64,000 bases of DNA from an uncultured Gammaproteobacteria bacterium (GTDB lineage: Bacteria; Patescibacteriota; Microgenomatia; Levybacterales; GWA1-39-11). Under the pieces are notes generated by a model. That model had not been told where the DNA came from and did no database searches. It saw nothing but the letters and a program-made list of their open reading frames with translations. Positions 716-60,513 of this stretch are shown one piece after another. The position numbers and the translations under genes were made by a program. The first letter of the stretch is position 1. Every line of letters begins with the position of its first letter. The stretch is from assembly GCA_964511305.1 (NCBI GenBank), contig CAZEEU010000002.1, positions 17,608 through 81,607 of the forward strand, read 5' to 3'.

Positions 716-2065
716 TTACATTCGTCCGATTTTTTTGGAGAATTCAATTATTCGGGGGTCTACCATCACGTCATTTGGATAAATCTTTTTAGTTACAACC
801 ATTCCCTCAAGGGTTCTACACCGACTCAAGGCAACATACGTTTGACCATGAGTAAAAGGAGACTTTGTAAAATCAATATTGGCTTTATTAAATGTCATAC
901 CCTGGCTTTTATGAATAGTTATAGCCCATGCAAGTTTTAGCGGATATTGCTTTAATGTACCTAGCACTACCGGAACAACGCTTTGAGCATCCTCATCATA
1001 TTCGTATTTGATATTTTCCCACTCTTCTATTGGAACTGTCACAATTTCATGAAATCCAGGGTCATCTAATCTTACTTTTATAGAATCTTTATCTAATGAC
1101 TCAACAAAACCTGAAGTCCCATTAACCCAACGACGAGCTTTATCGTTCTTTATGAAAATTACCCTCGCACCTTTCTTAAGTTTTAAATCTATTTCAATAG
1201 GCAGCGTTCTTTCCTCAGTCGGAAAATTTCCTTCGACCGTTGCGTTATATGTAAATAATGGACCATCAATTTTGTTAAGCTCTGAATCGTTGATGCCAGC
1301 AACTACACTATTAGTTGTTGCAAGAGTTATAAATTCTCGTCTCACTTTTTCGTAGTCCTTTACTACAACCCTATCATTTATAAGAGCCATGTCTTGCATT
1401 GATACGTCCCCAATTCTAATTTTGTTAAGAAGTGAAATATATTGCTCATCTTTTTGCCTAAAAATGTGTGTAAGCTCAATAACAGCAAATCCGGAATCCG
1501 AAAATGCATTTGCACTGAAAAAATATGGCGACTCAAAAAATTGGCTAAAAATATGTGCCTCTTCTCGAGCAACTATCGGAGGTAGCTGATACAGGTCCCC
1601 AACTACTATCATTTGTATTCCTCCAAATGGAAGATTTCTATCTTTACCGTTAATTCTTAAGAACCTATCTAGAGCATCAAAAAGATCAGCACGTACCATA
1701 GAAATTTCGTCAATAATAACTACGTCCAAGTCCTTATACACTCGAGAATTAGAATGCCTAAATTGCACGTGAGGATCTAAAAATCTCGGTGGAAGATGGA
1801 AAAAAGAATGAACTGTTTGGCCTTTTACATTAATTGCAGCAAGTCCGGTTGGCGCAAGAACAACAGTCTTTTTCTTTGTTGTATTTCTAAAGTATTCAAT
1901 AAGCGTTGATTTTCCAGTCCCAGCTTTTCCTGTAATAAAAAGATTGAGATGTGTATTTTCCATGCTCTCGATGCAGTCGAGAAATTCTTGACTCATCTCG
2001 AAGGATTCTTCATTCCCAGTAACTAAATCTTTTATTTTTTTAATAGTCGTTGTTATAGATGACAT
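716..2065 (-). CDS. PIF1/RecD-family ATP-dependent DNA helicase
   Basis: Walker A GKAGTGKST, Walker B VVIIDEISM, motif AITIHKSQG typical of the PIF1/RecD SF1B family. 449 aa. Confidence 0.8.
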   Translation of the reverse strand: MSSITTTIKKIKDLVTGNEESFEMSQEFLDCIESMENTHLNLFITGKAGTGKSTLIEYFRNTTKKKTVVLAPTGLAAINVKGQTVHSFFHLPPRFLDPHVQFRHSNSRVYKDLDVVIIDEISMVRADLFDALDRFLRINGKDRNLPFGGIQMIVVGDLYQLPPIVAREEAHIFSQFFESPYFFSANAFSDSGFAVIELTHIFRQKDEQYISLLNKIRIGDVSMQDMALINDRVVVKDYEKVRREFITLATTNSVVAGINDSELNKIDGPLFTYNATVEGNFPTEERTLPIEIDLKLKKGARVIFIKNDKARRWVNGTSGFVESLDKDSIKVRLDDPGFHEIVTVPIEEWENIKYEYDEDAQSVVPVVLGTLKQYPLKLAWAITIHKSQGMTFNKANIDFTKSPFTHGQTYVALSRCRTLEGMVVTKKIYPNDVMVDPRIIEFSKKIGRM

Positions 2066-2175
2066 TTATAGAACAATCAGTATATCACTGCTTTAAGATG
2101 GGCTGCTATAATGTCATAACAATACAAATTCCACTCATCCCCTACTTTAAAACTTCCCGCTACAGAGTCGCTGCC

Positions 2176-2568
2176 ATGGTTGAGCTTTCAGAAATTAAAG
2201 AAGGTGAACGAGTTGCAGATCTTGGATCAGGGGACGGTCGTATTTCAATTGCTTTCGGCAAAAAAGGAGCAATAGTTACAGGATACGAATTAGACGATAG
2301 ACTCATAGATGAATCACAAAAAGAAATCCAAAATCAAAAACTAGAAAAAAATGTAATTATTAAAAAGGAAGATTTTTGGAATACAGACCTTTCTTCATAT
2401 GACGTAATTGTTATCTATCCTATGCCAGACATAATGGCACCTCTTGAAGAAAAGCTTATGAAAGAATTACGCAGAGGAACACGCGTTCTTTCAAATTTTT
2501 ATACTTTTCCTAATTGGAAATACACGGAATGCAAAGATAAGATTTATTTATACGAGTATAATGAATAA
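2176..2568 (+). CDS. class I SAM-dependent methyltransferase (small)
   Basis: Motif VADLGSGDGR (SAM-binding motif I) followed by an acidic loop YELDD. Start moved to the internal ATG at 2176 (MVELSE...), because the annotated 5' extension overlaps the divergent helicase start. Confidence 0.55.
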   Translation: MVELSEIKEGERVADLGSGDGRISIAFGKKGAIVTGYELDDRLIDESQKEIQNQKLEKNVIIKKEDFWNTDLSSYDVIVIYPMPDIMAPLEEKLMKELRRGTRVLSNFYTFPNWKYTECKDKIYLYEYNE

Positions 2569-3688
2569 AGTGTTCATACCTCACAAAATTCCTCGCTTCA
2601 TGCTCATTGGGCTTTCAGACCCTCGGGCTCCCAAGGAAGAAATGTATTCAGATTTTGAAGAGGTAGAAAGTCTAGTTACAACTTTTGGAGGAACTGTGGA
2701 GGCAGCACTAGTCCAGAACCAAACAAGAGGAGCCTCTGGCACATTTATTGGCCATGGGAAAGTAACGGAGGCACTTGAAGTTATTAAGGAAAATGAAATC
2801 GACGTTGTTGTTATTAATGTTGCCATCAAACCAGGACAAATCCATGAACTTCTCCTTGCATTCCAAAAGGCTAATCCAAATATTGTTGTCTGGGACAGAG
2901 TAAGTCTTATTCTTGAAATATTTTCAAAAAATGCCTCCACTATGGAAGCCAAACTGCAAATAAAATTTGCAAAGCTAAGACAGATGGGACCAAGGATTTA
3001 TGGAATGGGAATGGAACTTTCAAATCAGGCAGCCGGTATTGGCGCAAAAGGAGCTGGCGAGACTAATACAGAGCTTATGCTTAGGCACTGGAAAAATGAA
3101 AAACATAAAATCCAAGAAGAATTAGCAATCCTTTCAAAACAAAAACTAGGACAAATCGATCACCGAAGAAAATTAGGAGCTCCTACAATTTCACTAGTAG
3201 GATATACCAATGCAGGAAAGACAACGTTATTTAATCGACTATCTGGACAGAATGATCTTGTAAAAGACGCGCTCTTTGCAACACTAGATAGTACTGTTAA
3301 TAAGTTTTATTTAAAAAACGCAAAGCGTGAAGTATACATTTCAGATACGATCGGCTTTATTAAGAATTTACCTCCTGAGTTAATTGATGCATTTAAATCT
3401 ACCCTCCTTGAGACAATTCACGCAGACGTAGTTCTTCATGTAATTGATTGTAGCGATCCGCAAATGGAATCAAAAATTATCACAGTTGAGGAAATCTTTG
3501 GTGATCTGAAGATTAAAAGAGAAAGTGTTATGTATGTTTTTAACAAAGTAGAAGATCTAAAGTCCGACAAAGAGATGATTATTGAACAATACAAAGAGTT
3601 CTCCCCTACTTTTATCAGTGCAAAAAAAGGAGATGGCATAGATGATCTTTTGGAGGCAATTACAAAACGCCTGCCCAATTTATCCTAG
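2561..3688 (+). CDS. hflX: GTPase HflX
   Basis: HflX N-terminal domain followed by G-domain motifs G1 GYTNAGKTTLFN and G3 DTIGF. 375 aa. Confidence 0.85.
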   Translation: MNKVFIPHKIPRFMLIGLSDPRAPKEEMYSDFEEVESLVTTFGGTVEAALVQNQTRGASGTFIGHGKVTEALEVIKENEIDVVVINVAIKPGQIHELLLAFQKANPNIVVWDRVSLILEIFSKNASTMEAKLQIKFAKLRQMGPRIYGMGMELSNQAAGIGAKGAGETNTELMLRHWKNEKHKIQEELAILSKQKLGQIDHRRKLGAPTISLVGYTNAGKTTLFNRLSGQNDLVKDALFATLDSTVNKFYLKNAKREVYISDTIGFIKNLPPELIDAFKSTLLETIHADVVLHVIDCSDPQMESKIITVEEIFGDLKIKRESVMYVFNKVEDLKSDKEMIIEQYKEFSPTFISAKKGDGIDDLLEAITKRLPNLS

Positions 3689-3699
3689 AGTCTGCTATA

Positions 3700-4323
3700 A
3701 TGAGCTTCATGGGAAATTACGGACGAGACAATAACTCAAGAGGACGCAGCTACAACGATAGAGGCGGAGCAGGTTTTGGAGATCGCGAGATGTTCAAGGC
3801 AACTTGTGCAGACTGTGGAAAGGCATGCGAAATTCCATTTAAACCATCGAATGGTAGACCCGTATATTGCAGAGATTGTTTCAAAAAACATGCTCCTCAA
3901 GACGCTAGAGGAGGAGAAAGAAGTAATTTCTCAAGAGATCGTAATGATAGAGGAGGAAGAAATACTCAAGATAGACCCATGTTTGATGCCGTTTGTGATA
4001 ACTGCGGAAATAACTGTCGAGTACCATTCGCTCCTCGAGAAGGCAAAGAAACGCTTTGTAGTAACTGCTTTGAGGCAAAAGGCGGAGATCCAAGAAGCAC
4101 AAGCAATCAAAGCTCTCAAGCTCTAAATGATATAAATGCAAAACTAGATAAAATTTTAGAGCTACTCTCTCCTACTCCAAAACAATCAAAGAAAGAAACG
4201 AAAGCAGAAGTTCTCGTTGAAGAAAATATAGTCGAAGAAGTACCTACTGAAGAGGTAGAACAGGCTGAGGAAATCGAAGTTAAAAAGCCAAAAACAAAAA
4301 AGAAAGCCGCAAAGTCAGAGTAA
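3700..4323 (+). CDS. tandem CxxC zinc-ribbon protein with acidic/lysine-rich C-terminal tail
   Basis: Two ~45-aa repeats of F(K/D)AxCxxCGxxCxxPFxP..G....C..CF. The C-terminus is a low-complexity E/K tail. Confidence 0.55.
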   Translation: MSFMGNYGRDNNSRGRSYNDRGGAGFGDREMFKATCADCGKACEIPFKPSNGRPVYCRDCFKKHAPQDARGGERSNFSRDRNDRGGRNTQDRPMFDAVCDNCGNNCRVPFAPREGKETLCSNCFEAKGGDPRSTSNQSSQALNDINAKLDKILELLSPTPKQSKKETKAEVLVEENIVEEVPTEEVEQAEEIEVKKPKTKKKAAKSE

Positions 4324-4331
4324 TTTTAGCC

Positions 4332-4919
4332 TTAGCAGCTCCCACCGGGAATATTCACCGTAATTCTTTCAAATCCAAAAGAAGACAGTATTGATGTAAT
4401 CTGCTTCCTGCCATTCTCACTAGTAGTTGTAAGTATCCCACCAGCACACGCAGCGCCTCTTATAGCATTTACAGCCTCCACTCTTGCGTCGCTTTCCAAA
4501 TTATTATCCGAACCCACTAATAACCCTTGCTGTCTATCATAGACTCTGGTTTCGGACTCATTAAGACTTGTTGATAATATTGTCGGAGGTGGGAAATTTA
4601 TAGTAATTGATTTACCTTCAATCTTTACACTATCTTCAGTTAGACTTGCAAAATCAAATCCTCCTACAACTTCACCATGTGCGATCAAAAGTATCCTATT
4701 TCCAAAAAGAACTCTTTGAAAAACATTTCCACTCTCCCCTCTATCAATTATCTTTTCGATAGAATATGAAGCCGTTTCCCATCTATTCAAATTTCGTATT
4801 TTTTCAATAACGGCGTGGTCATTGTACTTTTGCTTGAACGCTGATGAGAAAAAGAATCCTAGAACCACTATTGCAAGGATCGGGAAAAGAATAATGAGGG
4901 CAATTTTTAATCTATTCAT
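4332..4919 (-). CDS. DUF4230-like membrane-anchored protein
   Basis: N-terminal TM helix followed by a ~170-aa domain whose pattern resembles the DUF4230 family. Confidence 0.45.
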   Translation of the reverse strand: MNRLKIALIILFPILAIVVLGFFFSSAFKQKYNDHAVIEKIRNLNRWETASYSIEKIIDRGESGNVFQRVLFGNRILLIAHGEVVGGFDFASLTEDSVKIEGKSITINFPPPTILSTSLNESETRVYDRQQGLLVGSDNNLESDARVEAVNAIRGAACAGGILTTTSENGRKQITSILSSFGFERITVNIPGGSC

Positions 4920-4938
4920 ATATATAGTGTAGCAGAAT

Positions 4939-5415
4939 TTAAATCGCTAAAAGATACCCGCTAACCAATGGACGAAGAATAGCTTTAGACTTCTCGTACT
5001 TACCCCACCGCACTACATCTCGCTCGGTCGGTTCACCATTAATTCTTCGCCTGTCTGTATTATGCGTGAGATCAGCAAATTTCATATCAATTGCTAGTTG
5101 ATTACCTGAATCGGCAATTTTGTGGATTTTTTTGAAATACGCTTCGTGTGTTCCATCAAAATCTGGGTCATGAGTAACTAATCTTAGCGCATCTATAACA
5201 TGAGGAGGACAACCCATATCCAGAAGCTCTTCAAAGGTAATAGGAGAATCTTCTACAACATCGTGTATTATTGCCAAAAGCTTTGCATCATGCCCTTCTA
5301 CCAATTCCATAACACCCATTGGGTGATTTATGTAGTCGACTCCAGCTTTATCTACCTGCCCTTCGTGGGCTTCAAAGGCAACAGCAGTTGCGAGTTCAAG
5401 GGAAAACTCAACCAT
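4939..5415 (-). CDS. HD-domain protein, small (p)ppGpp hydrolase (SpoT/Mesh1-like)
   Basis: HD motif AIIHDVVED preceded by HEGQ..K.G..YI.HP, as in the RelA/SpoT hydrolase domain. Start placed at the internal Met (MVEFSLELA) where the homology begins. Confidence 0.6.
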   Translation of the reverse strand: MVEFSLELATAVAFEAHEGQVDKAGVDYINHPMGVMELVEGHDAKLLAIIHDVVEDSPITFEELLDMGCPPHVIDALRLVTHDPDFDGTHEAYFKKIHKIADSGNQLAIDMKFADLTHNTDRRRINGEPTERDVVRWGKYEKSKAILRPLVSGYLLAI

Positions 5416-5480
5416 TCTTATTGTAAAAATAATATCACATAAAATTGACATTGTAAGGACTTTGCATCTACGATGAATGC

Positions 5481-5927
5481 ATGGGTATTCTTGATAAATT
5501 AATGATCTTTGCAGCAGGTAAGGACGCTGAAGGAAAAATTCCTGTTCAGGCAACTACAAATCTTCCGAAGATAATGATTGTTGAGGCTGATCCAGCACTA
5601 AAAGCTCAATATATTCTGCTTTTACCAGCGGATAAATATTCAGTAAGCTCCTCAGTAAATGGTGCTGAGGCACTTAATATGTTACTTACCTTTCAGCCTT
5701 CCATCATACTTATCGATCTTAATCTTCCGGTCATGGACGGTAAAGAGCTTCTTCACCATATTCGTGCGATTCCTGAGTACAAAGTTACGCCTGTACTAGT
5801 AGTTTCTGATAAAGGAGATATAGACACAATTAGACAGGTTAAGCTTTATGATGGAGCAAAGGGATTTTTAATCAAAGAAAATGTTACACCAGAACAGACA
5901 ATAGCAACACTTCTTGATCTAATGTAG
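5481..5927 (+). CDS. receiver-only (CheY-like) response regulator
   Basis: Receiver fold with phospho-acceptor Asp in ILIDLNLPVMDGKEL and conserved Lys in GFLIKENVTP. No output domain. Confidence 0.7.
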   Translation: MGILDKLMIFAAGKDAEGKIPVQATTNLPKIMIVEADPALKAQYILLLPADKYSVSSSVNGAEALNMLLTFQPSIILIDLNLPVMDGKELLHHIRAIPEYKVTPVLVVSDKGDIDTIRQVKLYDGAKGFLIKENVTPEQTIATLLDLM

Positions 5928-5928
5928 T

Positions 5929-6693
5929 CTACTTTATAGGAATATTTATGAAAGGTGTACCGCTTGTAGCATTTGGCAATTTTCCATCCCATTTCTGAAC
6001 AGCTAAAAATTGTAAATATTCAGCAGTAAGACTCCCACTATCCCTTAATATCTTTTGTGCATCAGCCTGCCCTTGGGCCTGAGTTGTTGCTGTTGTTGCC
6101 TCAATTCTTGCTTTCTCATAATTTTGTTGCGCGACTTGTTTTTGTTCAATCGACTGATTGAAGTCTTGCGAAAAATCGAAGTTAACAATATTAAAATCAT
6201 CAACTATTACATTAAAGACATTAAGTCTTTCCTTTAGATGAGATAGTGCTTCCTGCTTAACCGCTTCTCTTTTAGTTATTAGCTCTGTTGCCGTAAATTT
6301 GGCAGTCGTTGCTTTAAATGCCTCTTGGATTGCAGGATCGATGATTCTTTCCTTATATAACGAGCCAATATTCTGGTAAACAACCACTGCCTTTTCTGCT
6401 CTTAAATGAAAATTAAGCGCAATCGTACTTTGCACTTCTTGCAAATCCTTTGAGGCTGCCCTAGCATCTACTTGCTCTTTTTGTGTTCTAGTCTCCATCA
6501 AAGTCACTCCTTCAATAAAAGGAACTTTGAAATTAAGTCCTGGGTTGACTACTCTATTCACTGCGCCAAATCGAGTAATAACCCCTACACTTCCTGCCTC
6601 AACAACAGCAAAGGATGAAGCAAACATAGCAATAAAAATAATAACTACTACACCAACTCCTATTATTTTCGGAAGATTTGCCTGAATATTCAT
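5929..6693 (-). CDS. SPFH/band-7 (prohibitin/HflC-like) membrane protein
   Basis: N-terminal TM helix, SPFH core (GxVGVITRFGAV...NPGLNFKVPFIE), C-terminal coiled-coil region rich in Q/A. Confidence 0.75.
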   Translation of the reverse strand: MNIQANLPKIIGVGVVVIIFIAMFASSFAVVEAGSVGVITRFGAVNRVVNPGLNFKVPFIEGVTLMETRTQKEQVDARAASKDLQEVQSTIALNFHLRAEKAVVVYQNIGSLYKERIIDPAIQEAFKATTAKFTATELITKREAVKQEALSHLKERLNVFNVIVDDFNIVNFDFSQDFNQSIEQKQVAQQNYEKARIEATTATTQAQGQADAQKILRDSGSLTAEYLQFLAVQKWDGKLPNATSGTPFINIPIK

Positions 6694-6780
6694 TTGACTT
6701 GAATGATAACACTAAGCAACATTAATTTCTACTCAATCTTATTCATATCACTCACACTTTCGACATGATATTATAAATTT

Positions 6781-7551
6781 ATGCAGTATAAGGCTTTGAT
6801 GCTTGACGTAGATGGCACGCTTATTCCCTATGAATATGGTGCCCTTCCCACTAAAAGGGTCAGGGAGGCAATTAAAAAAGCAAAAGAAAAAGTTGCAGTT
6901 TGCATAGTTACTGGGAGATCATACAAATCAACAAAAGGAATTCTTAATAGTCTTAATTTAAAAGATGGCATCGCCGTAGTTGATGGCGGTGCAATCGTAA
7001 TTGATATCGGAACAGAGAAAATTCTGTCGTCTAACTTTATTTCTGAAGAAGATGTAGAGTTAGTACTTTCTGTATTTGAAAAGGAAAGCGCTCATTTATT
7101 TATTAAAGATGCAAAAAGCCGTCTAGATATTAGAGATCATTATGACCCGTACGTACAGGGTCAAAAATTCGAACTTGTAAGCCAATTTTTTACAGACGAA
7201 GTTTTTACCCTTGAAGCAACACATGGAATTTTAAAGAAACTTTCCTCCCCTACCCTCACCACATTTAGGTCAAAACACAAAGATCCCAATTTATATGGCT
7301 TAAATATTGCAAATATCCATGCGTCAAAACTTCATGGTGTACTTTTTGTGAGTCAAAAACTTGGAATTAATAGGTCAGAGATGATTGGGGTTGGGGATGG
7401 ATACAATGATTTTCCGCTTCTTGAGGCTTGTGGATTAAAAGTCGCAATGGGAAATGCACTTGAGGATCTAAAAGGAATTGCTGATTACATCGCACCCTCT
7501 GTTGATGAAGATGGAGTTGCTAATGTTATTGAAAAATTTATTCTTATATGA
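6781..7551 (+). CDS. Cof-type HAD-IIB phosphatase
   Basis: HAD motif I LMLDVDGTL and motif IV GVGDGYNDFPLLEACGLKVAMGNA. Confidence 0.75.
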   Translation: MQYKALMLDVDGTLIPYEYGALPTKRVREAIKKAKEKVAVCIVTGRSYKSTKGILNSLNLKDGIAVVDGGAIVIDIGTEKILSSNFISEEDVELVLSVFEKESAHLFIKDAKSRLDIRDHYDPYVQGQKFELVSQFFTDEVFTLEATHGILKKLSSPTLTTFRSKHKDPNLYGLNIANIHASKLHGVLFVSQKLGINRSEMIGVGDGYNDFPLLEACGLKVAMGNALEDLKGIADYIAPSVDEDGVANVIEKFILI

Positions 7552-7994
7552 AAAAACTTTTGGTCATTTTTATTGCTGCACTTTTCTTCTTTCTACCTAA
7601 ATTATCATTTGCAGCAGACATTTCAACTACAGACAAGCTCATTACTGTTGATCTAGGCAAGCAAAAGCTTTATGCATGGGAAGGTGGAAGAATACAGAAG
7701 GAATTTAGCGTCTCAACAGGAATGCGCTACACGCCAACGGTTAGGGGGAGTTTTAAGATTTATATCAAAAATGAAAAGCAAAATATGAAAGGAAGCTACC
7801 CTCCCTATGAACCTTATTTTCTAAAAAACGTTCCATATGTCATGTTCTTCAAAGGCTCCTACGCAATTCATGGCACTTATTGGCACAATAAATTTGGCTC
7901 CCGCGCATCTCACGGATGCGTTAACTTACGTGTTGAAGATGCTCAATGGGTCTATGAATGGGCCCCTATGGGAACCCGAGTTGAAGTCTTCTAG
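7548..7994 (+). CDS. L,D-transpeptidase (YkuD domain), secreted
   Basis: Signal peptide. Catalytic motif HGTYWHNKFGSRASHGCVNL with the conserved His and Cys. Confidence 0.75.
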   Translation: MKKLLVIFIAALFFFLPKLSFAADISTTDKLITVDLGKQKLYAWEGGRIQKEFSVSTGMRYTPTVRGSFKIYIKNEKQNMKGSYPPYEPYFLKNVPYVMFFKGSYAIHGTYWHNKFGSRASHGCVNLRVEDAQWVYEWAPMGTRVEVF

Positions 7995-8031
7995 TATTTT
8001 TCTATCTTATAATCTGTTAAAATGTCGGCCT

Positions 8032-8640
8032 ATGGAAAATGGTCAGAGGCCGCGTCTTGCGGAAATACCAAATGTTAGTATTCATGTATCTGAGAATCCC
8101 CATACACTCCCCTTGGTTAGAAAAACGTTAGGATTTATCGGGAAAACTTCTAGAATGATAGGGGAAGATTTTGTAGCAAGCTATTCTACTAATCGGGCGC
8201 AAGCAATTGGAAACCCCCATCCATCAAGTCTAGATTTCTTGATAAAAAGAAATCTCCATTTACCTCAATTTGGGGTTTTTGATGCATTAACAGCGGGTGT
8301 CTTTCTAAATGCTGCAGGCTTAGACCATCAGATTGAACCCGATAATCTTTTGTTGGTATTTCAATTCCCTCAATTAACTGCCCGCTGGAATAGACGTAAA
8401 TATGAAGAAGAAAAACCTGAAAATTCTGTTATTAATTGGGGGAAATTTAGCTACCCCTTTAAGAGAGTTGTTTGGAATAATGTAAAGCTTTATTCAGAAA
8501 AAAGTCAGGAACTCACTTTTGATAGAATAAATGGCGAAGGAGAACATGACAGTAGCCTGTATCATTATGTCTGGGAAGTTGCATTACCTGAAGAAAAAAA
8601 AGAATATTTAAGAAGAAGTGGATTTAACCCCTCAAAATAA
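8032..8640 (+). CDS. hypothetical protein
   Basis: ORF 7837..8640 trimmed to the internal ATG at 8032 (MENGQ...), to avoid a 160-nt out-of-frame overlap with the L,D-transpeptidase. No recognisable motif. Confidence 0.35.
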   Translation: MENGQRPRLAEIPNVSIHVSENPHTLPLVRKTLGFIGKTSRMIGEDFVASYSTNRAQAIGNPHPSSLDFLIKRNLHLPQFGVFDALTAGVFLNAAGLDHQIEPDNLLLVFQFPQLTARWNRRKYEEEKPENSVINWGKFSYPFKRVVWNNVKLYSEKSQELTFDRINGEGEHDSSLYHYVWEVALPEEKKEYLRRSGFNPSK

Positions 8641-8662
8641 TTTCCGTTAATTGTTAAGTGGT

Positions 8663-8696
8663 CCGGCACCCGCAGCTAAAAAGCCACGGGTGCCGG
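8663..8696. terminator. GC-rich hairpin between convergent genes (possible bidirectional terminator)
   Basis: Perfect 10-bp inverted repeat CCGGCACCCG (8663-8672) / CGGGTGCCGG (8687-8696) with a 14-nt A-rich loop. Sits between the stop at 8640 (+) and the stop at 8718 (-). Confidence 0.5.
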
Positions 8697-8717
8697 AAAG
8701 ATCTGCTGGGATGAGCG

Positions 8718-9692
8718 CTAACTCTTGCTCGCCTTCTTGTGGCCGAGCGCAAGTACGTAAGCGCCGATGATGGCACCAAACACCATGAAGGTCAATGCCC
8801 ATGCCTGTGTTTGGCTGACAAGCATGCCTGTCCCCGAACTTGGCGGGGCTGGCGGTTTCGACGGCGTTATTGCCGTCGGTGTCCGCGTAGGCGTAGACTG
8901 CACCTCGGTTGGCGGTGCAGTCGGAGCCAAGGTCGGCGCGACAGTAGGCGAAGCTGTCGGTGGTACCTGCGTACCAGTCGGCGTTGCCGAAGGAGTCGTC
9001 GTCGGTGACAAAGTCCCCGTCGGCGTAGCCGTCGGGGTCTTGGTTTTGGTCGGTGTAGGCGTTGGCTCGACCGTGGTCGGTATAGCCGTCGGCGACGGCG
9101 TCAGGACAATGGTCGGTGTTGGTGGAGGAACCGTTGGGGTGGGCGTTGGCGGCCTACAATTGGGGTTGGGGCGATTAAGCCCCTCACCACCTGCACCATC
9201 CTCGTGGTGTTTGGCCAGCTCTTCCAATCCATACTGGCCTCCGGGTCCGCTCGTCAGGATGCTTCTCGGCGAACTGCCGATATAGACATCGAACTGAACG
9301 AAGCAGACATCGTCGGGTACGGACAGGTAGACTTTGACCGTCTGGCCAGCCTTGATCGTAACAGGCCCGTTCTGGCCAGCGATGTGCTGGTCACACACTT
9401 GGACGCTTGCGCATCCGTGTGTATTGAAGGCCTGAAACGTAGCGTTGTCGCACGTTACCGTACTGTTGTTCGTGACGGCTGCTCCTCCGAACCCGATGGG
9501 CGCCCATGTGAAATTGGCACCCACGCATTCGGAGGGACTTGCACTTACCGTGCGAGGCTGCGGCACCACTGCCACCAATCCCGCGATGAACGCGGCGACC
9601 AGTGGGATCAGTAGTAGCCAAGAACGACCTGCGGGTTTTCTCAAAACCCAACCTCCTTGTCTCACCTTTCCGGCGAGGGCAAACGCAGGCAA
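8718..9692 (-). CDS. secreted/membrane-anchored protein with Cys-containing domain, long Pro/Thr linker and C-terminal TM helix, encoded in a high-GC island
   Basis: N-terminal hydrophobic helix, ~120-aa Cys-containing domain, ~110-aa (PT)n linker, C-terminal TM plus basic tail. The DNA is ~60-65% GC versus a mid-30s% background. Confidence 0.6.
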   Translation of the reverse strand: MPAFALAGKVRQGGWVLRKPAGRSWLLLIPLVAAFIAGLVAVVPQPRTVSASPSECVGANFTWAPIGFGGAAVTNNSTVTCDNATFQAFNTHGCASVQVCDQHIAGQNGPVTIKAGQTVKVYLSVPDDVCFVQFDVYIGSSPRSILTSGPGGQYGLEELAKHHEDGAGGEGLNRPNPNCRPPTPTPTVPPPTPTIVLTPSPTAIPTTVEPTPTPTKTKTPTATPTGTLSPTTTPSATPTGTQVPPTASPTVAPTLAPTAPPTEVQSTPTRTPTAITPSKPPAPPSSGTGMLVSQTQAWALTFMVFGAIIGAYVLALGHKKASKS

Positions 9693-9739
9693 AGTATTAC
9701 CTAAGTTTGTTCTCGCCGAAAAATAGCAGATTTTTAAAG

Positions 9740-9830
9740 AACTGCTAGTCCATATCCATAGCGCGCAAATTTGCTAAACGTAGTTAGCATTAAATGCTAA
9801 ACGCAGTAGCAAATTGCTATGGGATAGAAA
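9740..9830. promoter_or_regulatory. imperfect palindrome upstream of receiver gene (candidate operator)
   Basis: CCATAGCGCGCAAATTTGCTAAACG ... GCTAAACGCAGTAGCAAATTGCTATGG. The two halves are near reverse complements, and TGCTAAACG occurs twice as a direct repeat. Confidence 0.3.
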
Positions 9831-9906
9831 AGCAGTCAAATCATACCACAAAACGGTCAAAATTCAATTAAATTGACATAAAATTACGACAAATGTAATA
9901 TGAGTT

Positions 9907-10356
9907 ATGGGACTCTTTGATAGATTTAAATTCGGCTCACAAAATTCTCAACCATCAGCTCCCTCTCCTGCTGCTCCAGTTGGCCCAAAAATGAAAAAAG
10001 TACTTGTTGTTGAAGACGATGAAGCTCTTCGTGGATTATACGTGGAAGTACTAAAAGCCGAGCAATTAGATGTGATTTCTGCAGAAAATGGCCTTAAAGG
10101 CTTAGAAATTGCCCAAGCACAAAAGCCAGACGTCATTCTCTTGGACCTCATGATGCCTGTTATGGATGGCAAAACCATGCTTCGTACGCTTAGAGGACTT
10201 CCTGGATTTGAAAAACTACCGGTTATTATATTGACCAATGCAGGAGACATAGACTCCATTCGAGAAACAAAATTATTTGGAAATGCCAATGCATTTCTTA
10301 TAAAAGCAAATGTTACCCCTCAAGATATAGTCCAAAATATAAGAACCTACATTTAA
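9907..10356 (+). CDS. receiver-only (CheY-like) response regulator, paralog of 5481..5927
   Basis: Motifs KVLVVEDDEALR and VILLDLMMPVMDGKTML...AFLIKANVTPQD. The C-terminal half is near-identical in motif order to the 5481 protein. An alternative start is the MKKVLVV Met at 9991. Confidence 0.7.
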   Translation: MGLFDRFKFGSQNSQPSAPSPAAPVGPKMKKVLVVEDDEALRGLYVEVLKAEQLDVISAENGLKGLEIAQAQKPDVILLDLMMPVMDGKTMLRTLRGLPGFEKLPVIILTNAGDIDSIRETKLFGNANAFLIKANVTPQDIVQNIRTYI

Positions 10357-10359
10357 TCC

Positions 10360-11208
10360 ATGAGATTTCTTGCCCTACTTTTTTTCCTCGCGACAGCTCC
10401 ACTTGTTATATTTTTAGCTGCACTTTCATACGGAGGGGTATCCACTGACATTATCAAAACCGAACTAGCAAAAAGCGGTTTGTATAAAAAAATCGATTTT
10501 CCCCCAGTTACTCCTGATTATGCGAGAGCGAAAGTAAATAAGGCAATTGATGATTCAGCCTTGTGGATCACAGGCAAGACAAATGACGCTCCCATAGTCT
10601 CATTCAAAGATATAAAGGACGAATTTTTGGCAAAAAATCCAGATATACAAGATTCAATTGTCGAAATGTCCAATATGCCTGAAGCTGAAGCATCAGAGGG
10701 AGACTATGCCCAAGGTGAGGATCCTCAGGAAATTATGAAGTCTATCGCAAAAAATGACTTCTCTTATCCACTTAAAGATGCTTTATCGGGACTCAAGATG
10801 GGACATTCTGTACTTTCTGTAATGCTTCCAGTGCTTTTAATTCTCATGATCATAAGTGTTATTGTAATAATTTTGAAATCTCCTGACAATAAAAGCAGGT
10901 TTCGATGGCTTGGAGTTACTTTTCTCTTAAGCGCTGTTGGCTCATATCTCCTTTTTCTCGTATTTGAATTTATCGCAGCAACAGCACTTGCTGCGGCCAT
11001 CCAAAATTCAAACGGTATATTTACCTTAGTTATTCCTATCATTGAGAGTGTCGCTATGCTTTTTCTAGCAAGACATGGAGATTTTCAGATATTTTATTCT
11101 TTTGCAATCGGGGTATTTGGCGTGGTTTGTCTTGCATCATCTTTTGCTTTTCAAAAGGATACTATACCTAACAAACCACAACCAAATCAAAAAAAGAAAT
11201 CTACTTAA
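10360..11208 (+). CDS. integral membrane protein, hypothetical
   Basis: N-terminal TM, soluble segment, then 3-4 C-terminal TM helices. No motif recognised. Confidence 0.45.
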   Translation: MRFLALLFFLATAPLVIFLAALSYGGVSTDIIKTELAKSGLYKKIDFPPVTPDYARAKVNKAIDDSALWITGKTNDAPIVSFKDIKDEFLAKNPDIQDSIVEMSNMPEAEASEGDYAQGEDPQEIMKSIAKNDFSYPLKDALSGLKMGHSVLSVMLPVLLILMIISVIVIILKSPDNKSRFRWLGVTFLLSAVGSYLLFLVFEFIAATALAAAIQNSNGIFTLVIPIIESVAMLFLARHGDFQIFYSFAIGVFGVVCLASSFAFQKDTIPNKPQPNQKKKST

Positions 11209-11509
11209 TCAATGTAAATCCTCCGATTAACGGAAGGGGTTTCATAACTCCATTAGAAGCGTTGATAATACCCATTACAAAGAAAACCAAGACTGCGATA
11301 TTTCCTATTGGGAGCACTAAGAACCATCCCAAGAAAGGAACTACGCCACCTACTACCTGAACTGCTATAGCTAGGATTAAAAGGATAAGTCCTTGGTTAG
11401 CATGATATTTTGCAAATGTTGATTTTGGTGCCGCAAGAAGCGGTATGAAAAAAAGGATATAAGCCAAAATCCCCATTGTTTTGTTTTGTTGTGCGTCAGT
11501 TGATGCCAT
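11201..11509 (-). CDS. DUF4870-like small membrane protein
   Basis: Motif KYHANQGL between two TM helices, characteristic of the DUF4870/TM2-like small membrane proteins. Confidence 0.5.
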   Translation of the reverse strand: MASTDAQQNKTMGILAYILFFIPLLAAPKSTFAKYHANQGLILLILAIAVQVVGGVVPFLGWFLVLPIGNIAVLVFFVMGIINASNGVMKPLPLIGGFTLIK

Positions 11510-11669
11510 ATTTACTCACCTCCTTTACTAAAGAATTACTTCCCAAAAATTTGCATAGTAAGCTACAGAAAAGCGCCCAAAATTAAAGTTACTAGAAATT
11601 GCAACAACGAGTTTGCCAGAATACACATGCTGGAGAAATTTGGTGTTTGACTTCTTGGCCATGGGAGAT

Positions 11670-12308
11670 TTAGTAGCCTTCTGAATCATCTGTAACAGGC
11701 TCTTCACCTGTCATAGAATCCCCGCCTTGATACTGCTCCATCATTTTCTTTACATCTTCTTCACTCATTCCATTACCATTCATCATTTTTGACATATCCT
11801 GAAAATCTACGTCAGCAGGTGGAGTGAACAAGCTATCCGAAACAACTGAGGCTTTACATTTATCTTTATACTCTTCCAAGTCTTTGATTATATTGTCTGC
11901 TTCATTTGATTTATCATTCTCCATTGCTTGATCATCATCTTTTGCTTCCGGAATTTCCATCATAAATCCTTCTTTACCTTTCCAAGAATATATCTTTCTA
12001 TCTTTCATGATCATGCTACCGGTCTGTTCTGGATCTGAAGACTCCATATCTGCCCGTATCGCACCATTCTTTATGAAGTATTTGGATTTTACGTTTTGAG
12101 CGTCAGTATATTCACATTCAAGGCTAACTGATTTTGTAAGTGCGTCTTTAATTGAAGTGAAAGCGTTTCCGCCCATCATGCTGCTACCCATCATTTTTCC
12201 TTTATTGAGCATGAAAAAAGCACCTGCAGCAACAACGAGAACTCCTACAACAATTAGAACAATTACAATTGGGGGGAATCCTTTTTTAGCAGTAGCCATA
12301 AGATACAT
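11670..12308 (-). CDS. membrane-anchored acidic protein, hypothetical
   Basis: N-terminal TM, then a soluble domain with an acidic/Met-rich C-terminal tail. Confidence 0.4.
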   Translation of the reverse strand: MYLMATAKKGFPPIVIVLIVVGVLVVAAGAFFMLNKGKMMGSSMMGGNAFTSIKDALTKSVSLECEYTDAQNVKSKYFIKNGAIRADMESSDPEQTGSMIMKDRKIYSWKGKEGFMMEIPEAKDDDQAMENDKSNEADNIIKDLEEYKDKCKASVVSDSLFTPPADVDFQDMSKMMNGNGMSEEDVKKMMEQYQGGDSMTGEEPVTDDSEGY

Positions 12309-12515
12309 TAAGCATAATCATTTGGAAGATTTCCTGTCAAGAGATCAATTTCAGCAATTTTCTGATGCAATTTTATCAAGCAACCATATTTTAACGTCTA
12401 AATCATATGTGAATGAGCGAAACATATAGCGCATGCAACAACAACTAATAGCTAGACATTCCACAAATCAAAGATGAGAGAAGGGCTATGGAGCAGGTTC
12501 ACTATATACGTAAAT

Positions 12516-13100
12516 CTACCTCTTCTTTTTCTTGTCAGCATTTCTCAGTGGAGGAAAATAGTCTTTAAATAGAAAAAATACTATATTAATCATTGACCCA
12601 AATACTAACACCCAAGTAAGCAATTCAATATTGCCAAGAGTTAGCATAATATCCTGGACTACTTTCATAGGTTCTGTGAATATATACCAAGAATGAGTTC
12701 TTTGAACCTTGCCCAAGATAACTCCAAATGCTATGACGTAATTAAGCCCTATATATAAAATTTCTTTCTTTATCTCTGGAAAGCGAAGCCTTTTGAAAAT
12801 GAGTGCAATTGGCTCAAGCGAATATACATAAGTCATAACACCTAGTGCCGCAAGAATCGAGAATTGGACAAGAAGAATAAGCTGCTCTCCCATCCCGACT
12901 CTAAGAAGCTGATACGGTAGATGCTGAAGGTCGGTTATCAAATAAATCGTGTTAGGTAAAAATAAGAGCCAAAAGAAAAAAACTATTAAATGAACGACGA
13001 TGTTAAGTCTGCGTCTCAGAACAACAACTAATATTATTGGGAGGAAAGCTAATATGGTATTAAATACCATCCAGGAAAAATTGTAGGCAAAGAAAGTCAC
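12516..13100 (-). CDS. polytopic membrane protein, hypothetical
   Basis: 5-6 predicted TM helices. No catalytic motif. Confidence 0.4.
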   Translation of the reverse strand: MTFFAYNFSWMVFNTILAFLPIILVVVLRRRLNIVVHLIVFFFWLLFLPNTIYLITDLQHLPYQLLRVGMGEQLILLVQFSILAALGVMTYVYSLEPIALIFKRLRFPEIKKEILYIGLNYVIAFGVILGKVQRTHSWYIFTEPMKVVQDIMLTLGNIELLTWVLVFGSMINIVFFLFKDYFPPLRNADKKKKR

Positions 13101-13110
13101 GAATTTAATC

Positions 13111-13911
13111 TTACCCTACTTTTTTCACCAAAATCAACTTGCCATCAGCGTCAAAACCCACGATACCCTCATCTACTAGCTTCTTTACATGAGCCCTAGC
13201 GGTCATTTTTCCAGCGAATCCGTGGTTCCCATAATAAACCTCCACCATTTCATCGATTGTACGTACTCCCCTCTCTATCAACCTAAGCATCCCTATTTCA
13301 CGTCTTGTTGTTCTATCGATATATGCATCTATTTTTCCTGCAGCATCAGTAATGGGTTTGCCATGGCCTGAAAGAAGCATCGAGGGCTCCATGTTTTTAA
13401 GCAAATGAAGACTATTAATATAGTCGCTCATTTCAGCGCATACCACAACAGAGTCTGCTTCAATTATTGTATCTCCCGTAAATATTGCGCCAGTTACAGA
13501 ATCGCTTACAACCAAGCTATCTTCAGTATGTCCCGGTGTTGCAACTACATTAAGTACCCGTGAACCAAGATCAATGCTTCGGTTAACTGCTTTTTTGCCA
13601 GTTCCTCCATGCGACCTGCTTTCAGTAATTTGACCAAACTGTGATCTACCACCTCGATGATCAAAATGGAAATGCGTTACAACCATCGAGTCAATTTTAG
13701 GAGAACCAAGATTGCGCCAAGTGTCTGCAAGCAGTTGCCCTTCTTGCGCCATACCACGTCCTGTATCAATAATAGCTGCACTCTCTTGCCCAACAACAAT
13801 ATAAAAATTGGGTGCACCGACTGTCCATTCATAATCACCAACAGTCATTTGGGTTATACCCTCTGCAACCTCGCGTGCAATAGCCTGGCCATGGCTTGGA
13901 GTTTCAAACAT
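13111..13911 (-). CDS. MBL-fold metallo-hydrolase
   Basis: Metallo-beta-lactamase motif VVTHFHFDHRGG (HxHxDH) and downstream His/Asp ligands. Confidence 0.7.
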   Translation of the reverse strand: MFETPSHGQAIAREVAEGITQMTVGDYEWTVGAPNFYIVVGQESAAIIDTGRGMAQEGQLLADTWRNLGSPKIDSMVVTHFHFDHRGGRSQFGQITESRSHGGTGKKAVNRSIDLGSRVLNVVATPGHTEDSLVVSDSVTGAIFTGDTIIEADSVVVCAEMSDYINSLHLLKNMEPSMLLSGHGKPITDAAGKIDAYIDRTTRREIGMLRLIERGVRTIDEMVEVYYGNHGFAGKMTARAHVKKLVDEGIVGFDADGKLILVKKVG

Positions 13912-13926
13912 GGGGGAATGATACCA

Positions 13927-15183
13927 CTAGAGCGGGAGGTCTACAATAAAAGATGCGCCATCCCCGGCTTTGCTCTCGACTGAAAGCTTACCTTTATGTG
14001 CTTCTACAATCTGAAGACAAATATATAGCCCGACTCCAAGACCAGAATACTCTTTTGAGTTTACGGCTCTTTTGAACTGCTCGAATATCATCTCCTGATC
14101 AACCTTTTTAATGCCAATCCCATTATCTTTTATGCGAATGTGCGCATTTTTCCCTAGTTTCTTGACGGTTATCAAGATAGGTTTCCCTTTTCCATACTTA
14201 ATTGCGTTTGAAAGTAGATTTGCGATTACCTGCTCTATGCGAACCTTGTCCCACATACCGACAATCTTTTCATCCATATCTACAACTACCTGTATGTTGG
14301 AATCCTTAAGGCGCGCTTTAAAACTAAGTATTACCTCTTTTACGAGTCCTATTAGCTCTGTTTCTTCTTTTTCAATTTGTAGTCTTCCTGTTGATGCAAC
14401 CGATACATTTAGTAGGTCATTAATGAGTCTTGCCATCCTATGACTTTGTCTACTGCTTAGCTCCAACATTTTTACAATTTCTCGAATCTCTGGAGATTCG
14501 ATCTCGGTTTTTTGGATTTTCTTAATAACCGCCTGGATATTGAGTAAAATTGAAGTTAAAGGTGTCTTAAGCTCGTGAGACGCAACTGACAAAAATTCAT
14601 CCCTAGTTCTTAATGCCTTTTGCGCTTCCAAATAAAGCCTCGCTTTATCTACAGCTGTTGCAGCTCTATTTGCTAGTTCTTCAATAAATGGTAGGTCAGT
14701 TTCTGAATAGGAAAACTTTGGATCCATTGATGCAGTTGTCAAAACCCCAATTGTTTGACCACGACTAATGAGTGGAACAAAAAGGTGTGAATTAAGACCT
14801 AATTTTTTTATAGTCTCACGCTCTTCCTTTATCTTTGAAACTCTATTAAGCCAGGTAGGTGTAGCTTTTTTTATCAGAACAGTCTTGTTATTTTTAGCAG
14901 TGTCATAAATTGCTTCCTTATTGGATGGACTCGGAAGAAATTCATACATTTTATTTGCAAGTTTTTGCTTTTTTCGATCAGCAACCCTAACAGCAACCCG
15001 AGACATTTTTCGCCCATCAAAAATATCTATAATACAAAAATCAGAAACTCCGGTTACAATAAGCTCTGCTACCGTTCCAAGAGTTGTGTAGTAGTCAAGA
15101 GAAGATGAAAGGACTTTACTTGCTTCAGATAAAAAAAGTATCTTGTCTGATACGACGTGAGGCATGTACCACAAGTGTAGCAC
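13927..15183 (-). CDS. cytoplasmic GAF-domain sensor histidine kinase
   Basis: N-terminal GAF-like domain, H-box SVASHELKTPLTSI, N/G boxes NAIKYG, DNGIGI, GLGVGLYI. No TM segments. Confidence 0.8.
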   Translation of the reverse strand: MLHLWYMPHVVSDKILFLSEASKVLSSSLDYYTTLGTVAELIVTGVSDFCIIDIFDGRKMSRVAVRVADRKKQKLANKMYEFLPSPSNKEAIYDTAKNNKTVLIKKATPTWLNRVSKIKEERETIKKLGLNSHLFVPLISRGQTIGVLTTASMDPKFSYSETDLPFIEELANRAATAVDKARLYLEAQKALRTRDEFLSVASHELKTPLTSILLNIQAVIKKIQKTEIESPEIREIVKMLELSSRQSHRMARLINDLLNVSVASTGRLQIEKEETELIGLVKEVILSFKARLKDSNIQVVVDMDEKIVGMWDKVRIEQVIANLLSNAIKYGKGKPILITVKKLGKNAHIRIKDNGIGIKKVDQEMIFEQFKRAVNSKEYSGLGVGLYICLQIVEAHKGKLSVESKAGDGASFIVDLPL

Positions 15184-47328: not shown

Positions 47329-48111
47329 TTATTTAGCCTTCTCCTCTGCAACCTTTGCTTTTCTTGTTTCTTCTGCTAATTTCTCGGCTGCTTTGTTGTC
47401 TACTTTTAATTTTTCCTTAGATCCTTCGATCCAAGCGTCAATTAAATATGTAGTAATAAGCTTGATTGATCCAACTGCATCATCATTTGCAGGAATTGAA
47501 AAATCAACTTCGGATGGATCTGCATTTGTGTCAGTTATACCGATTGTTTTAAGTCCAACTCTTGCAGCCTCTCTTACAGCTGTATTTTCTCCATGCGTAT
47601 CAATAATAAATACAGCATCAGGTGCTTGCTTGATAGTAAATAAACCTCCGTATATGTCTTTTAATTTTATTAGTTCTTTTTCAAAAATACCAACTTCTCT
47701 TTTTGTGTATCCACCACGATCTTCAGCAGTAACAATTTTCTCAAGATCAACAAGCTTTTTGAAATTTTTCTTTACTTCTTCAAAATTTGTAAAAATTCCA
47801 CCAATCCAACGAGAAATGATGTAATGAATCGTGTCTGGGGTTACTTCTCGGGCCCTTTCAACTTCTTCTTTAACGATTGCCTGAGCCTGTCTTTTTGTAC
47901 CTACGACAACAATGCTTCCGCCTTTTGCTGCAAGTTCTTTAACATATTCTGCAGCCGCAATAAGACCTTCCTGAGTTGCCTCAAGATTTATGATATTAAC
48001 TCCTCCGCGAGCTTCAAAAATATAGCGATTAGCTTTTGGGTTGCGTCTATTAACTTGATGTCCAAAATGACATCCAGCTTCCAATAATTCTTCTAGTGTA
48101 ATTTGTCTCAT
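47329..48111 (-). CDS. rpsB: 30S ribosomal protein S2
   Basis: MRQITLEELLEAGCHFGHQ...RWIGG signature. Confidence 0.95.
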   Translation of the reverse strand: MRQITLEELLEAGCHFGHQVNRRNPKANRYIFEARGGVNIINLEATQEGLIAAAEYVKELAAKGGSIVVVGTKRQAQAIVKEEVERAREVTPDTIHYIISRWIGGIFTNFEEVKKNFKKLVDLEKIVTAEDRGGYTKREVGIFEKELIKLKDIYGGLFTIKQAPDAVFIIDTHGENTAVREAARVGLKTIGITDTNADPSEVDFSIPANDDAVGSIKLITTYLIDAWIEGSKEKLKVDNKAAEKLAEETRKAKVAEEKAK

Positions 48112-49619: not shown

Positions 49620-49676
49620 CATGAATAAAGAATGTAGAATAAAGAATGTAGAATTAAGAATTAAGAATTAAGCAAT

Positions 49677-50279: not shown

Positions 50280-50323
50280 TGACTTGACATGATATATATA
50301 ATTGGTGCAAACTCAAAGTTAGC

Positions 50324-52015: not shown

Positions 52016-52023
52016 GATTAAAC

Positions 52024-52668: not shown

Positions 52669-52714
52669 CCTATCCCAAAGTCTATTTCCTCGAATTTATG
52701 GCATACTTATAGAT

Positions 52715-53698: not shown

Positions 53699-53710
53699 GC
53701 GAAGCTTGCC

Positions 53711-53727
53711 CTTTTGGCAAAGGGTGA
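53711..53727. terminator. hairpin CCCTTTtggcAAAGGG immediately after stop of 52715..53698
   Basis: Inverted repeat read from the sequence, within a GC-rich ~100-bp segment between convergent genes. No downstream T-tract, hence low confidence. Confidence 0.3.
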
Positions 53728-53801
53728 CACCGACCCTCCTCTTCTGGGCGCTGCCATGCAATGGCGAGTACTCTTGGGGTGGAGGGGTTATTGGAAGATA
53801 G

Positions 53802-54392: not shown

Positions 54393-54461
54393 ATATTTAA
54401 ATATTATCAGATTTTCTTAATTCTTGATTCTTAATTCTTAATTCTATATACTCGTGACAAG

Positions 54462-55778: not shown

Positions 55779-55846
55779 AAAACGCGCTTCTTATTGACAC
55801 TCAAGTCTATCTTCACTACTATGTAAATAGTTGGCCTTATATAGAT

Positions 55847-59745: not shown

Positions 59746-59748
59746 TGC

Positions 59749-60510: not shown

Positions 60511-60513
60511 ATT

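Follow-up and report, generated by a model that had tools for sequence, protein, structure and literature searches.

The stretch analyzed here comprises 64,000 nucleotides of contig CAZEEU010000002.1 (assembly GCA_964511305.1), from a genome placed by GTDB in the Levybacterales (Patescibacteriota). This whole stretch is called the window in the following, and all positions are numbered on it. Against a genomic GC content of 38%, a stretch of about 1 kb with roughly 60% GC stands out. It holds one single gene on the minus strand, which encodes a putative surface protein with a proline/threonine-rich (PT) linker; the gene and its flanking signals are referred to as the cassette. The cassette resides in a slot between a response regulator gene on one side and the genes g202 and YkuD on the other, and its neighbours are housekeeping genes. 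The features of the locus are collected in Table 1.

Table 1. Features of the cassette and its borders, with positions on the window (UTR, untranslated region; aa, amino acids; nt, nucleotides).
Feature	Position	Strand	Remarks
Response-regulator promoter (candidate)	9873-9901	+	Back-to-back with the cassette promoter; TTGACA-N17-TAATAT, near consensus
Candidate sigma-70-type promoter	9840-9867	-	TTGAAT, 16 nt, TG-extended TATGAT; AT-rich, host-like DNA
AT-rich leader/operator tract	9740-9830	-	Nested palindromes; TAGCA-N3-5-TGCTA units, ACGTTT spacers
Box 1	9725-9731	-	AUCUGCU; 5' partner of a predicted long-range helix; upstream limit of both GC-rich tract and family-wide homology
GC-rich 5' UTR hairpin	9667-9722	-	Inverted repeat with 26-nt arms; many compensatory pairs (5 sequences); in all co-folds
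Box 2	9661-9666	-	GGUGAG; GGAUGAGC in relatives
Shine-Dalgarno sequence	9652-9656	-	GGAGG; ends 7 nt before the start codon
Coding sequence	8718-9644	-	308 aa, TTG as likeliest start; stop 8718-8720
Signal peptide	~9540-9644	-	Judged from sequence
Allele-specific segment (late signal peptide and full ectodomain)	9151-9620	-	27-63% identity in 30-column windows; indels
Cys-containing beta-sandwich ectodomain	9147-9539	-	Sequence and structure model
PT linker	8847-9146	-	Sequence
Putative sorting signal	8721-8846	-	PPSSG 8832-8846, hydrophobic stretch 8742-8804, basic tail HKKASKS 8721-8741
Box 2'	8709-8717	-	CGCUCAUCC; directly after the stop codon; complementary to box 2
Box 1'	8701-8707	-	AGCAGAU; in the 3' UTR; complementary to box 1
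GC-rich 3' hairpin	8663-8696	-	15-16 bp including G-U on the minus-strand RNA; arms 8662-8677/8682-8697; no U-tract

In windows of 200 nt, GC content amounts to 0.34-0.40 outside the tract, 0.49 at 8600-8799, 0.575-0.66 at 8700-9699 and 0.34 at 9700-9899. The GC-rich tract thus extends from about 8660 to 9725 with 58-66% GC, compared to about 37% in its surroundings. Over the whole 64 kb, 1-kb windows range between 0.32 and 0.45 except for two rises at 41-44 kb and 51-52 kb, both of which are amino-acid-driven. One example of amino-acid content alone lifting GC is the gene at 41524-43830(+), which shows a GC content of 0.49 and yet only 0.20 at third codon positions (GC3); it encodes a low-complexity protein of 768 aa rich in Ala, Pro, Glu and Thr, within which about 45 aa are duplicated and to which Pfam has no match.

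The cassette gene behaves differently. Its GC contents at the first, second and third codon positions are 0.57, 0.61 and 0.63, respectively, whereas GC3 of the 70 other open reading frames (ORFs) of the window averages 0.304 (standard deviation 0.033, range 0.20-0.38), which places the cassette gene 9.9 standard deviations above their mean. ACG makes up 53% of its threonine codons and CCG 44% of its proline codons, versus 11% each in the host. Native PT-rich genes of the window prefer ACA, ACT, CCA and CCT (ACG 11%, CCG 5%) and are GC-enriched at codon positions 1 and 2 only, with a GC3 of 0.20 (41524-43830) and 0.28 (61551-62606). Translational selection was considered as the source of the high GC3 and rejected: G-ending and C-ending codons are both enriched, G-ending CpG codons as much as C-ending ones, and the gene of ribosomal protein S2, rpsB (47329-48111, minus strand), has a GC3 of 0.20, near the window minimum. 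As rpsB is likely highly expressed, translational selection would act in the direction opposite to the GC3 of the cassette, and expression-linked codon bias of the host seems to favour A/T-ending codons.

Much of the initial annotation of this DNA is upheld by these counts. It had described a compositional anomaly of about 1 kb, which the GC windows and GC3 confirm, and had contrasted native PT-linker genes, AT-rich in their codons, with this one. The perfect 10-bp GC hairpin that it placed at one border is present (8663-8672/8687-8696), as is the palindromic tract at the other. Likewise, its view that the tract holds one minus-strand gene and that the overlapping plus-strand ORFs are GC artefacts is substantiated: between homologues, the ratio of nonsynonymous to synonymous divergence (dN/dS) in the minus frame is about 0.15-0.2, and the protein features of this frame are conserved. 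Within the ectodomain types described below, dN/dS is about 0.14-0.19, which identifies the minus-strand frame as a real gene under purifying selection. In two related loci, L002 and L004, some gene callers chose a plus-strand ORF.

The ORF as listed spans 8718-9692 on the minus strand (324 aa, TTG start). The most likely start, however, is the TTG at 9644, because it is preceded at 7 nt by GGAGG and because the relative P0001 was called from the equivalent codon. Accordingly, the architecture proposed at first, i.e., a membrane segment, a Cys-containing domain, a PT linker and a C-terminal membrane segment with a basic tail, holds in outline, while the length has to be revised to 308 aa and the N-terminal segment reads as a signal peptide. 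By sequence inspection, the leader MRKPAGRSWLLLIPLVAAFIAGLVAVVPQPRTVSA shows a basic n-region and a hydrophobic core along with a VSA site, and equivalent leaders exist in all homologues. All members share a common plan composed of the signal peptide, a domain of about 130 aa with conserved Cys residues and the motifs AYNTHGC, VQFD and YG, a PT-rich linker of 80-104 residues and a C-terminal signal. The latter begins with a pentapeptide such as PPSSG, PPSAG, APSTG or APITG; over eight members, the consensus is [AP]-P-x-[TSA]-G, where P2 and G5 are kept, T4 occurs sometimes and L1 never. In the window protein, the hydrophobic stretch AWALTFMVFGAIIGAYVLALG and HKKASKS follow, and homologues end in RRGRRSLR, GRRSKR, RSTRRR, NRNRY, KLASRR or RMSKTR. 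Sortase sorting signals are defined by three parts, of which the first is a pentapeptide with G as its last residue, the second hydrophobic and the third a basic tail (PMC4617865). The C-terminal signal follows this logic with a non-canonical motif, and the protein is probably secreted and anchored to the cell surface by a sortase. An AlphaFold model based on five family members predicts a seven-stranded beta-sandwich for the ectodomain (pLDDT 67.9, pTM 0.65). The matches from Foldseek are weak throughout, with none reaching E <= 0.001; where a domain is annotated, it is fibronectin type III (Fn3)- or immunoglobulin (Ig)-like. The protein represents a very small, previously undescribed, lineage-specific surface-protein family with allelic ectodomain types.

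The GC-rich tract starts about 110 nt downstream of the candidate promoter, at box 1, and matches the main part of a single predicted transcription unit, which begins with the hairpin of the 5' UTR and ends with the 3' hairpin. A promoter scan revealed 4 promoter-like sites where 0.8 were expected, and the hexamers of the cassette promoter are conserved in the related loci L009, L013, L011, L021, and L022. Boxes 1 and 1' on the one hand and boxes 2 and 2' on the other could pair between the two UTRs, over 7-11 bp and 6-9 bp, respectively. A three-way junction formed by box 1:1', the 5' hairpin and box 2:2' was predicted in all eight co-folds, and also in both the minimum free energy and the centroid structure of the 1181-nt transcript. 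The box 1 partners change together among relatives (UCUGCU/AGCAGA, UCUGUUG/CAACAGA, UCUGUC/GACAGA, and UCUGUCAC/GUGACAGA), with G-U pairs in L013, L021 and L022. RNAalifold, run on five sequences, recovered the box 1 helix unaided with 7 pairs, none of them broken and 2 with compensatory changes (CG/UA/UG and UA/CG/UG). Cognate box 1 partners match better than all but 7 of 5040 permutations, in a small sample of 7-8 sequences.

The same boxes may be seen as terminal inverted repeats of a mobile cassette that is moved by a transposase acting in trans. An 11-nt inverted repeat does flank the unit, shared homology begins at box 1, and one member occurs in a second genomic context. We regard this as very unlikely, since the wobble positions of L013, L021 and L022 would be G-T mismatches in duplex DNA, since the order of the second box pair and the 3' hairpin is fixed and agrees with a junction in RNA, and since the 3' hairpin lies outside the repeats and yet travels with the cassette. 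Besides, no target-site duplication is visible, and no transposase was found among the annotated neighbours. An integron cassette was dismissed by eye, as the unit has its own promoter and Shine-Dalgarno (SD) sequence and no integrase is among the neighbours.

The 3' hairpin forms a shared convergent end with g202 (8032-8640, plus strand). It is conserved, with one-sided changes and one two-sided change, and was not called by a terminator scan, lacking a T-run; its role is probably that of a terminator or of a stabiliser of the 3' end. In L011, a unit of about 27 nt (TTGCCCCTTCCAGGGGTAATCAGAWA) that forms a small CCCCT/AGGGG hairpin is inserted three times in tandem after the stop codon, ahead of the conserved 3' box (positions 1206-1290 of that locus). 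At the other end of the coding sequence, AAGGAGG combined with a TTG start is found in all eight members. Among 56 host genes of the window, only 3 have an SD-like 4- or 5-mer in the 22 nt preceding the start, and 48 start with ATG; to judge from these starts, the host appears to be largely SD-independent.

Between promoter and box 1 lies the AT-rich palindromic tract. Its TAGCA-N3-5-TGCTA unit occurs nowhere else in the 64 kb. Relatives differ in how many units they carry, and L014 lacks the tract altogether. The leader RNA of the tract folds with a z-score of -6.95. The tract may serve as a series of operators immediately following the promoter, or may form a long hairpin in the 5' leader; because the copy number varies and the tract is missing in L014, an operator seems at least as likely as an RNA element. 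At both gathering and permissive thresholds, Rfam returned no family for the leader or the UTRs. On the opposite strand, the -10 element of the response-regulator promoter ends 5 nt before the ATG, which suggests that the response-regulator mRNA is leaderless.

Relatives of the cassette were collected by a HMMER search against 1.84 billion representative proteins, which yielded four true relatives; all those for which the DNA was fetched reside in AT-rich contigs. The match to P0002, a repeat protein of 5486 aa (E = 6e-16), was discarded as spurious, consisting of 68 weak matches to a T/P-rich repeat. The loci of relatives were reached via the family proteins and via orthologues of a neighbouring gene of 282 aa (g282). 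A family member fills the same slot in L009, a conspecific mosaic, in L013, in L011 (a fragment), in L021, and in L022, and one more member is located outside the slot, downstream of obg (L012/L014). Within the species, the cassette is present in seven of seven slot-spanning loci as an insert of 1262-1266 bp with a GC content of 0.55. All eight members are GC-rich (gene GC 0.56-0.62, GC3 0.59-0.75), while the loci that harbour them have 0.39-0.42 GC.

The flanking genes provide a time scale. Between the window and L013, their synonymous divergence (dS) ranges from 1.1 to 4 at 85-93% aa identity. The saturated dS of the flanks together with the shared slot implies that the cassette predates, or has moved among, lineages whose silent sites are saturated. 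The initial annotation had proposed a recent acquisition from a high-GC donor, either actinobacterial or Chloroflexi-like. Atypical GC content and codon usage are what such an event would leave behind, and a PT linker with an LPXTG/LAXTG-like signal would suit such donors. This proposal did not survive the comparison: species whose flanking genes are saturated in dS share the slot, the cassette is GC-rich in all of them, and donor homologues are lacking, which makes a recent transfer highly unlikely. Its borders are devoid of mobility genes, tRNA genes and direct repeats, the sole tRNA gene of the window being located at 61.4 kb. A tblastn search of viral contigs and of phage and plasmid collections revealed no homologue, and a scan of GTDB-representative genomes gave matches in these lineages only, with no GC-rich genome carrying a homologue. 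JGI metagenomes yielded nothing, whether scanned with a peptide pattern or with an exact 35-mer from the linker, and a word-indexed protein search with the domain alone or with the family alignment found no match and missed the protein itself, too, and hence is uninformative for this family. As far as these comparisons reach, the cassette is an old resident common to related species and not a recent import.

A chimeric assembly or contamination, for which the sharp compositional step at each end might speak, had been raised as a caveat from the outset. Its probability is practically negligible, as identical junctions and the identical protein were recovered from independent assemblies in Logan, ENA, JGI, and NCBI data sets; at least 8 contigs, obtained from independent samples with independent assemblers, encode the exact 324-aa product. 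The response-regulator flank is represented by the exact protein in many assemblies, of which 23 contigs were read (56 blocks in the index).

Old residence leaves a foreign origin in the distant past compatible with the data, although not required. The main rival of the reading that we favour is built on it: an ancient transfer from an SD-using donor with about 60% GC into the ancestor of the clade, followed by slow, incomplete and neutral amelioration, with the UTR boxes as features from the time of the donor. Along this line, codon usage is GC-shifted in general and not toward specific codons, and the slot of L023, the most distant relative (g282 31% identical), is occupied by an unrelated AT-rich gene. 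Three traits of the cassette fit an ancient foreign origin, i.e., a strong SD sequence where the genome has few such sites, a GC-rich hairpin lacking a U-tract, unusual for this host, and the LPXTG-like signal. Polarised synonymous changes from strong to weak versus weak to strong bases gave ratios from 15:14 to 26:8, and thus an excess of GC loss in some of the counts, which are biased by saturated outgroups and shared linkers. On the other hand, all eight members retain a GC3 of 0.59-0.75 without a trend toward the host value of 0.30, in spite of saturated dS and aa identities of 26-40%. By a rough estimate, about 0.8-1 synonymous substitution per site and lineage should have erased most of the excess, and the 1.84 billion representative proteins include no homologue on the side of a donor. 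We therefore rate neutral decay after an ancient transfer as unlikely. The persistence of high GC across species with saturated neighbouring genes indicates that a force other than recent import must act.

The coding part of the cassette reveals a second kind of history. Aligning the slot of seven assemblies of the species resolved two haplotypes, which are 93-100% identical in the promoter region, the leader, the first approximately ten codons, the entire PT linker, the anchor and the 3' UTR. In between, the allele-specific segment of late signal peptide and full ectodomain differs strongly, with a sharp breakpoint at 9151, at the start of the linker, and the other breakpoint near 9620 in the signal peptide. 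Comparing the window (type A) with L001 (type B), adjacent genes show a dS of 0-0.03, while the ectodomains differ by a dS of 1.57 and a dN of 0.62 at 39% aa identity. Type B is closer to the B3 type of another species (L013, 70% aa identity) than to type A of its own species (39%). Additional types A2, B4, C, D, and E were distinguished, L020 represents a second mosaic with its transition inside the linker, and types B and A2 occur together in one metagenome assembly. Thus, divergent ectodomain types are exchanged between otherwise near-identical strains. Judged from the alignment, the exchange is by homologous recombination, with the leader/signal-peptide region and the PT linker as flanks. 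Such a pattern would be expected of a surface locus under diversifying or balancing selection. Hypervariation by a diversity-generating retroelement was rejected on inspection, as the differences between alleles involve all four bases as well as indels and extend over the whole domain. With respect to silent copies, neither another high-GC3 ORF nor a family fragment was found in the 64-kb window, and the protein libraries hold no extra family clusters.

Whole-domain replacement with sharp breakpoints, the mosaic divergence of the genes surrounding the slot between the window and L009, and the coexistence of several types in one sample might also be explained by repeated import, in which an unsampled GC-rich reservoir (a partner organism, a plasmid or a phage) donates alleles by recombination via the conserved flanks. 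Every recovered member, however, is located in an AT-rich contig and most of them in the syntenic slot, and the viral, phage, plasmid, genome and metagenome scans revealed nothing outside these lineages. Continued import is hence rather improbable.

If not import, selection on the RNA could keep GC content high, and the folding of the coding RNA bears on this point. Compared with synonymous shuffles, the ectodomain-coding RNAs of the eight members reach z-scores of -7.2, -4.9, -4.4, -6.3, -0.9, -3.1, -3.5, and -3.6 (mean -4.2). Host genes (n = 24) show a mean of -0.3 and a minimum of -2.5, and genes of mycobacteriophage L5 (62% GC, n = 17) a mean of -1.7 and a minimum of -5.3; both sets differ from the cassette (Mann-Whitney U test, p = 2e-6 and p = 0.0015, respectively). 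The excess persists when shuffling is confined to local stretches of 20 and 40 codons, by which regional codon heterogeneity was dismissed as its source.

We favour, with a probability of roughly 0.55, the reading that the cassette is a long-resident, lineage-restricted expression unit for a secreted, probably sortase-anchored surface protein with a disulfide-containing beta-sandwich ectodomain, and that selection on the RNA of this unit keeps its GC content high. The mRNA would be closed by the 5'-3' helix around the three-way junction beside the ribosome-binding site and would be unusually base-paired throughout. Selection on this RNA would hold GC high against the AT mutation bias of the host, by way of mRNA stability (against AU-directed RNases), of control over initiation, or of both. 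A structured mRNA would need a strong SD sequence together with its weak TTG codon, where other host genes would rely on unstructured, AT-rich starts. The variable ectodomain may serve as a contact surface, e.g., for attachment to partner cells or as a phage receptor, and would be subject to diversifying or balancing selection. The more specific proposition that RNA selection was actively keeping GC content at about 60% before the present species of the clade arose and has done so ever since, with the ectodomain turning over by allele replacement, and that the result mimics horizontal gene transfer (HGT), is put forward as tentative; we lean against it.

Several observations weigh against this reading or parts of it. 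Individual helices in the coding sequence are not conserved between types A and A2 or between B and B3, the sense strand folds better than the antisense strand in only five of seven members, and the GC-rich control genes, with z-scores down to -5.3, overlap the range of the cassette. The box 1 helix is possible as RNA only if the transcript starts upstream of box 1, as predicted. A mild ongoing decay of GC would be compatible with the polarised counts. As to the protein, Pfam and NCBIfam contain no match to the family, and the NCBIfam models of sorting signals gave none at E <= 1; in the 64-kb window, we found neither a sortase (TLxTC-type signature) nor a second protein with the same signal. 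The structure model is of moderate quality only and its fold matches are generic, and it is the architecture and the pattern of variation that hint at a function of the ectodomain.

The cassette shares features with several known systems. With LPXTG-type surface proteins of Gram-positive bacteria that carry Pro/Thr-rich stalks, it has in common the signal peptide, an ectodomain, the PT linker and a tripartite C-terminal signal. It deviates from them by the [AP]-P-x-[TSA]-G pentapeptide, the missing match to anchor models, the lack of a sortase gene in the window, and an ectodomain family without described relatives.

Pairing between 5' and 3' UTRs has precedents. In B. subtilis hbs, a 14-bp interaction of both UTRs modulates cleavage by RNase Y (PMC5737220); S. 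aureus icaR (PMC3868564) and the tac/fbi stem of hok (PMC9841398) are further cases. Known pairings of this kind modulate RNase access, mRNA stability or translation (PMC5737220, PMC3868564, PMC9841398). Complementary boxes in the 5' and 3' UTRs near the ribosome-binding site are common to these mRNAs and the cassette. In contrast to them, the pairing of the cassette is a predicted one, it spans a GC-rich coding sequence of about 930 nt in an AT-rich genome, and it forms a two-helix junction around the 5' hairpin that covaries across a family with a hypervariable coding part.

The divergent ectodomains in near-identical backgrounds, the sharp breakpoints and the types common to several species resemble polymorphic surface loci and trans-species polymorphism. 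Unlike such loci, neither silent cassettes nor switching machinery were found in the window, and variation is between strains. With HGT islands as conceived by the amelioration model, the cassette shares a sharp discontinuity in GC and codon usage, which is limited to one gene. It differs from them in being GC-rich in an AT-rich genome, in the lack of mobility genes, in occupying one slot across species, and in having stayed apart from the composition of the host even though synonymous divergence is saturated.

Atypical GC content is routinely taken as a sign of recent HGT, and the cassette keeps its composition across species saturated at silent sites. It thus constitutes a concrete test case for the amelioration model. 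If selection on mRNA structure proves true, it would be a rare natural case of a whole bacterial mRNA, coding part included, being shaped by folding, and 5'-3' UTR communication, which is known from a few genes of model organisms, would extend to an uncultivated lineage. The surface protein is a good candidate for the molecule by which these bacteria meet partner cells or phages. Metagenomes of wastewater and river water are among the places where these little-known bacteria occur, and the metagenome-assembled genome of one relative stems from a study of municipal wastewater and river water (SRP286056; PMC9405806). The gene content, with YkuD, secreted proteins bearing cohesin, dockerin, VWA and CAP domains, a sortase-like signal, low GC and few SD sites, gives the impression of a monoderm-like organism, possibly of the CPR/Patescibacteria.

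The genes around the slot vary in their own right. Over 1278-14862, the window and L009 form a mosaic, with dS ranging from 0 (zf_Tbcl) to more than 1 (g282, DUF1361, and HK) and a peak of divergence around the slot. A glpX gene is located between the MamF-like gene and DUF1361 in L009, L013, and L021 and is absent from the window, as is a gene of 639 or 656 aa present in L009 and L013. As listed, the ORF of g202 (7837-8640, plus strand) overlaps the YkuD gene by 158 nt; in relatives, the gene is called from 8032 instead, which gives 202 aa. Pfam has no match to g202. L013 lacks this gene, and L021 has a second YkuD gene in its place.

Further away from the cassette, 18019-20151(-) encodes a 710-aa fusion of a GH15 glucoamylase-like domain and a ROK sugar kinase that is conserved in relatives (Pfam assignment from the L021 orthologue). 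A run of secreted proteins on the plus strand at 48717-62606 carries VWA, dockerin, cohesin, PKD, and CAP domains along with native PT linkers in AT-rich codons, and looks like a cellulosome-style cohesin-dockerin surface system.

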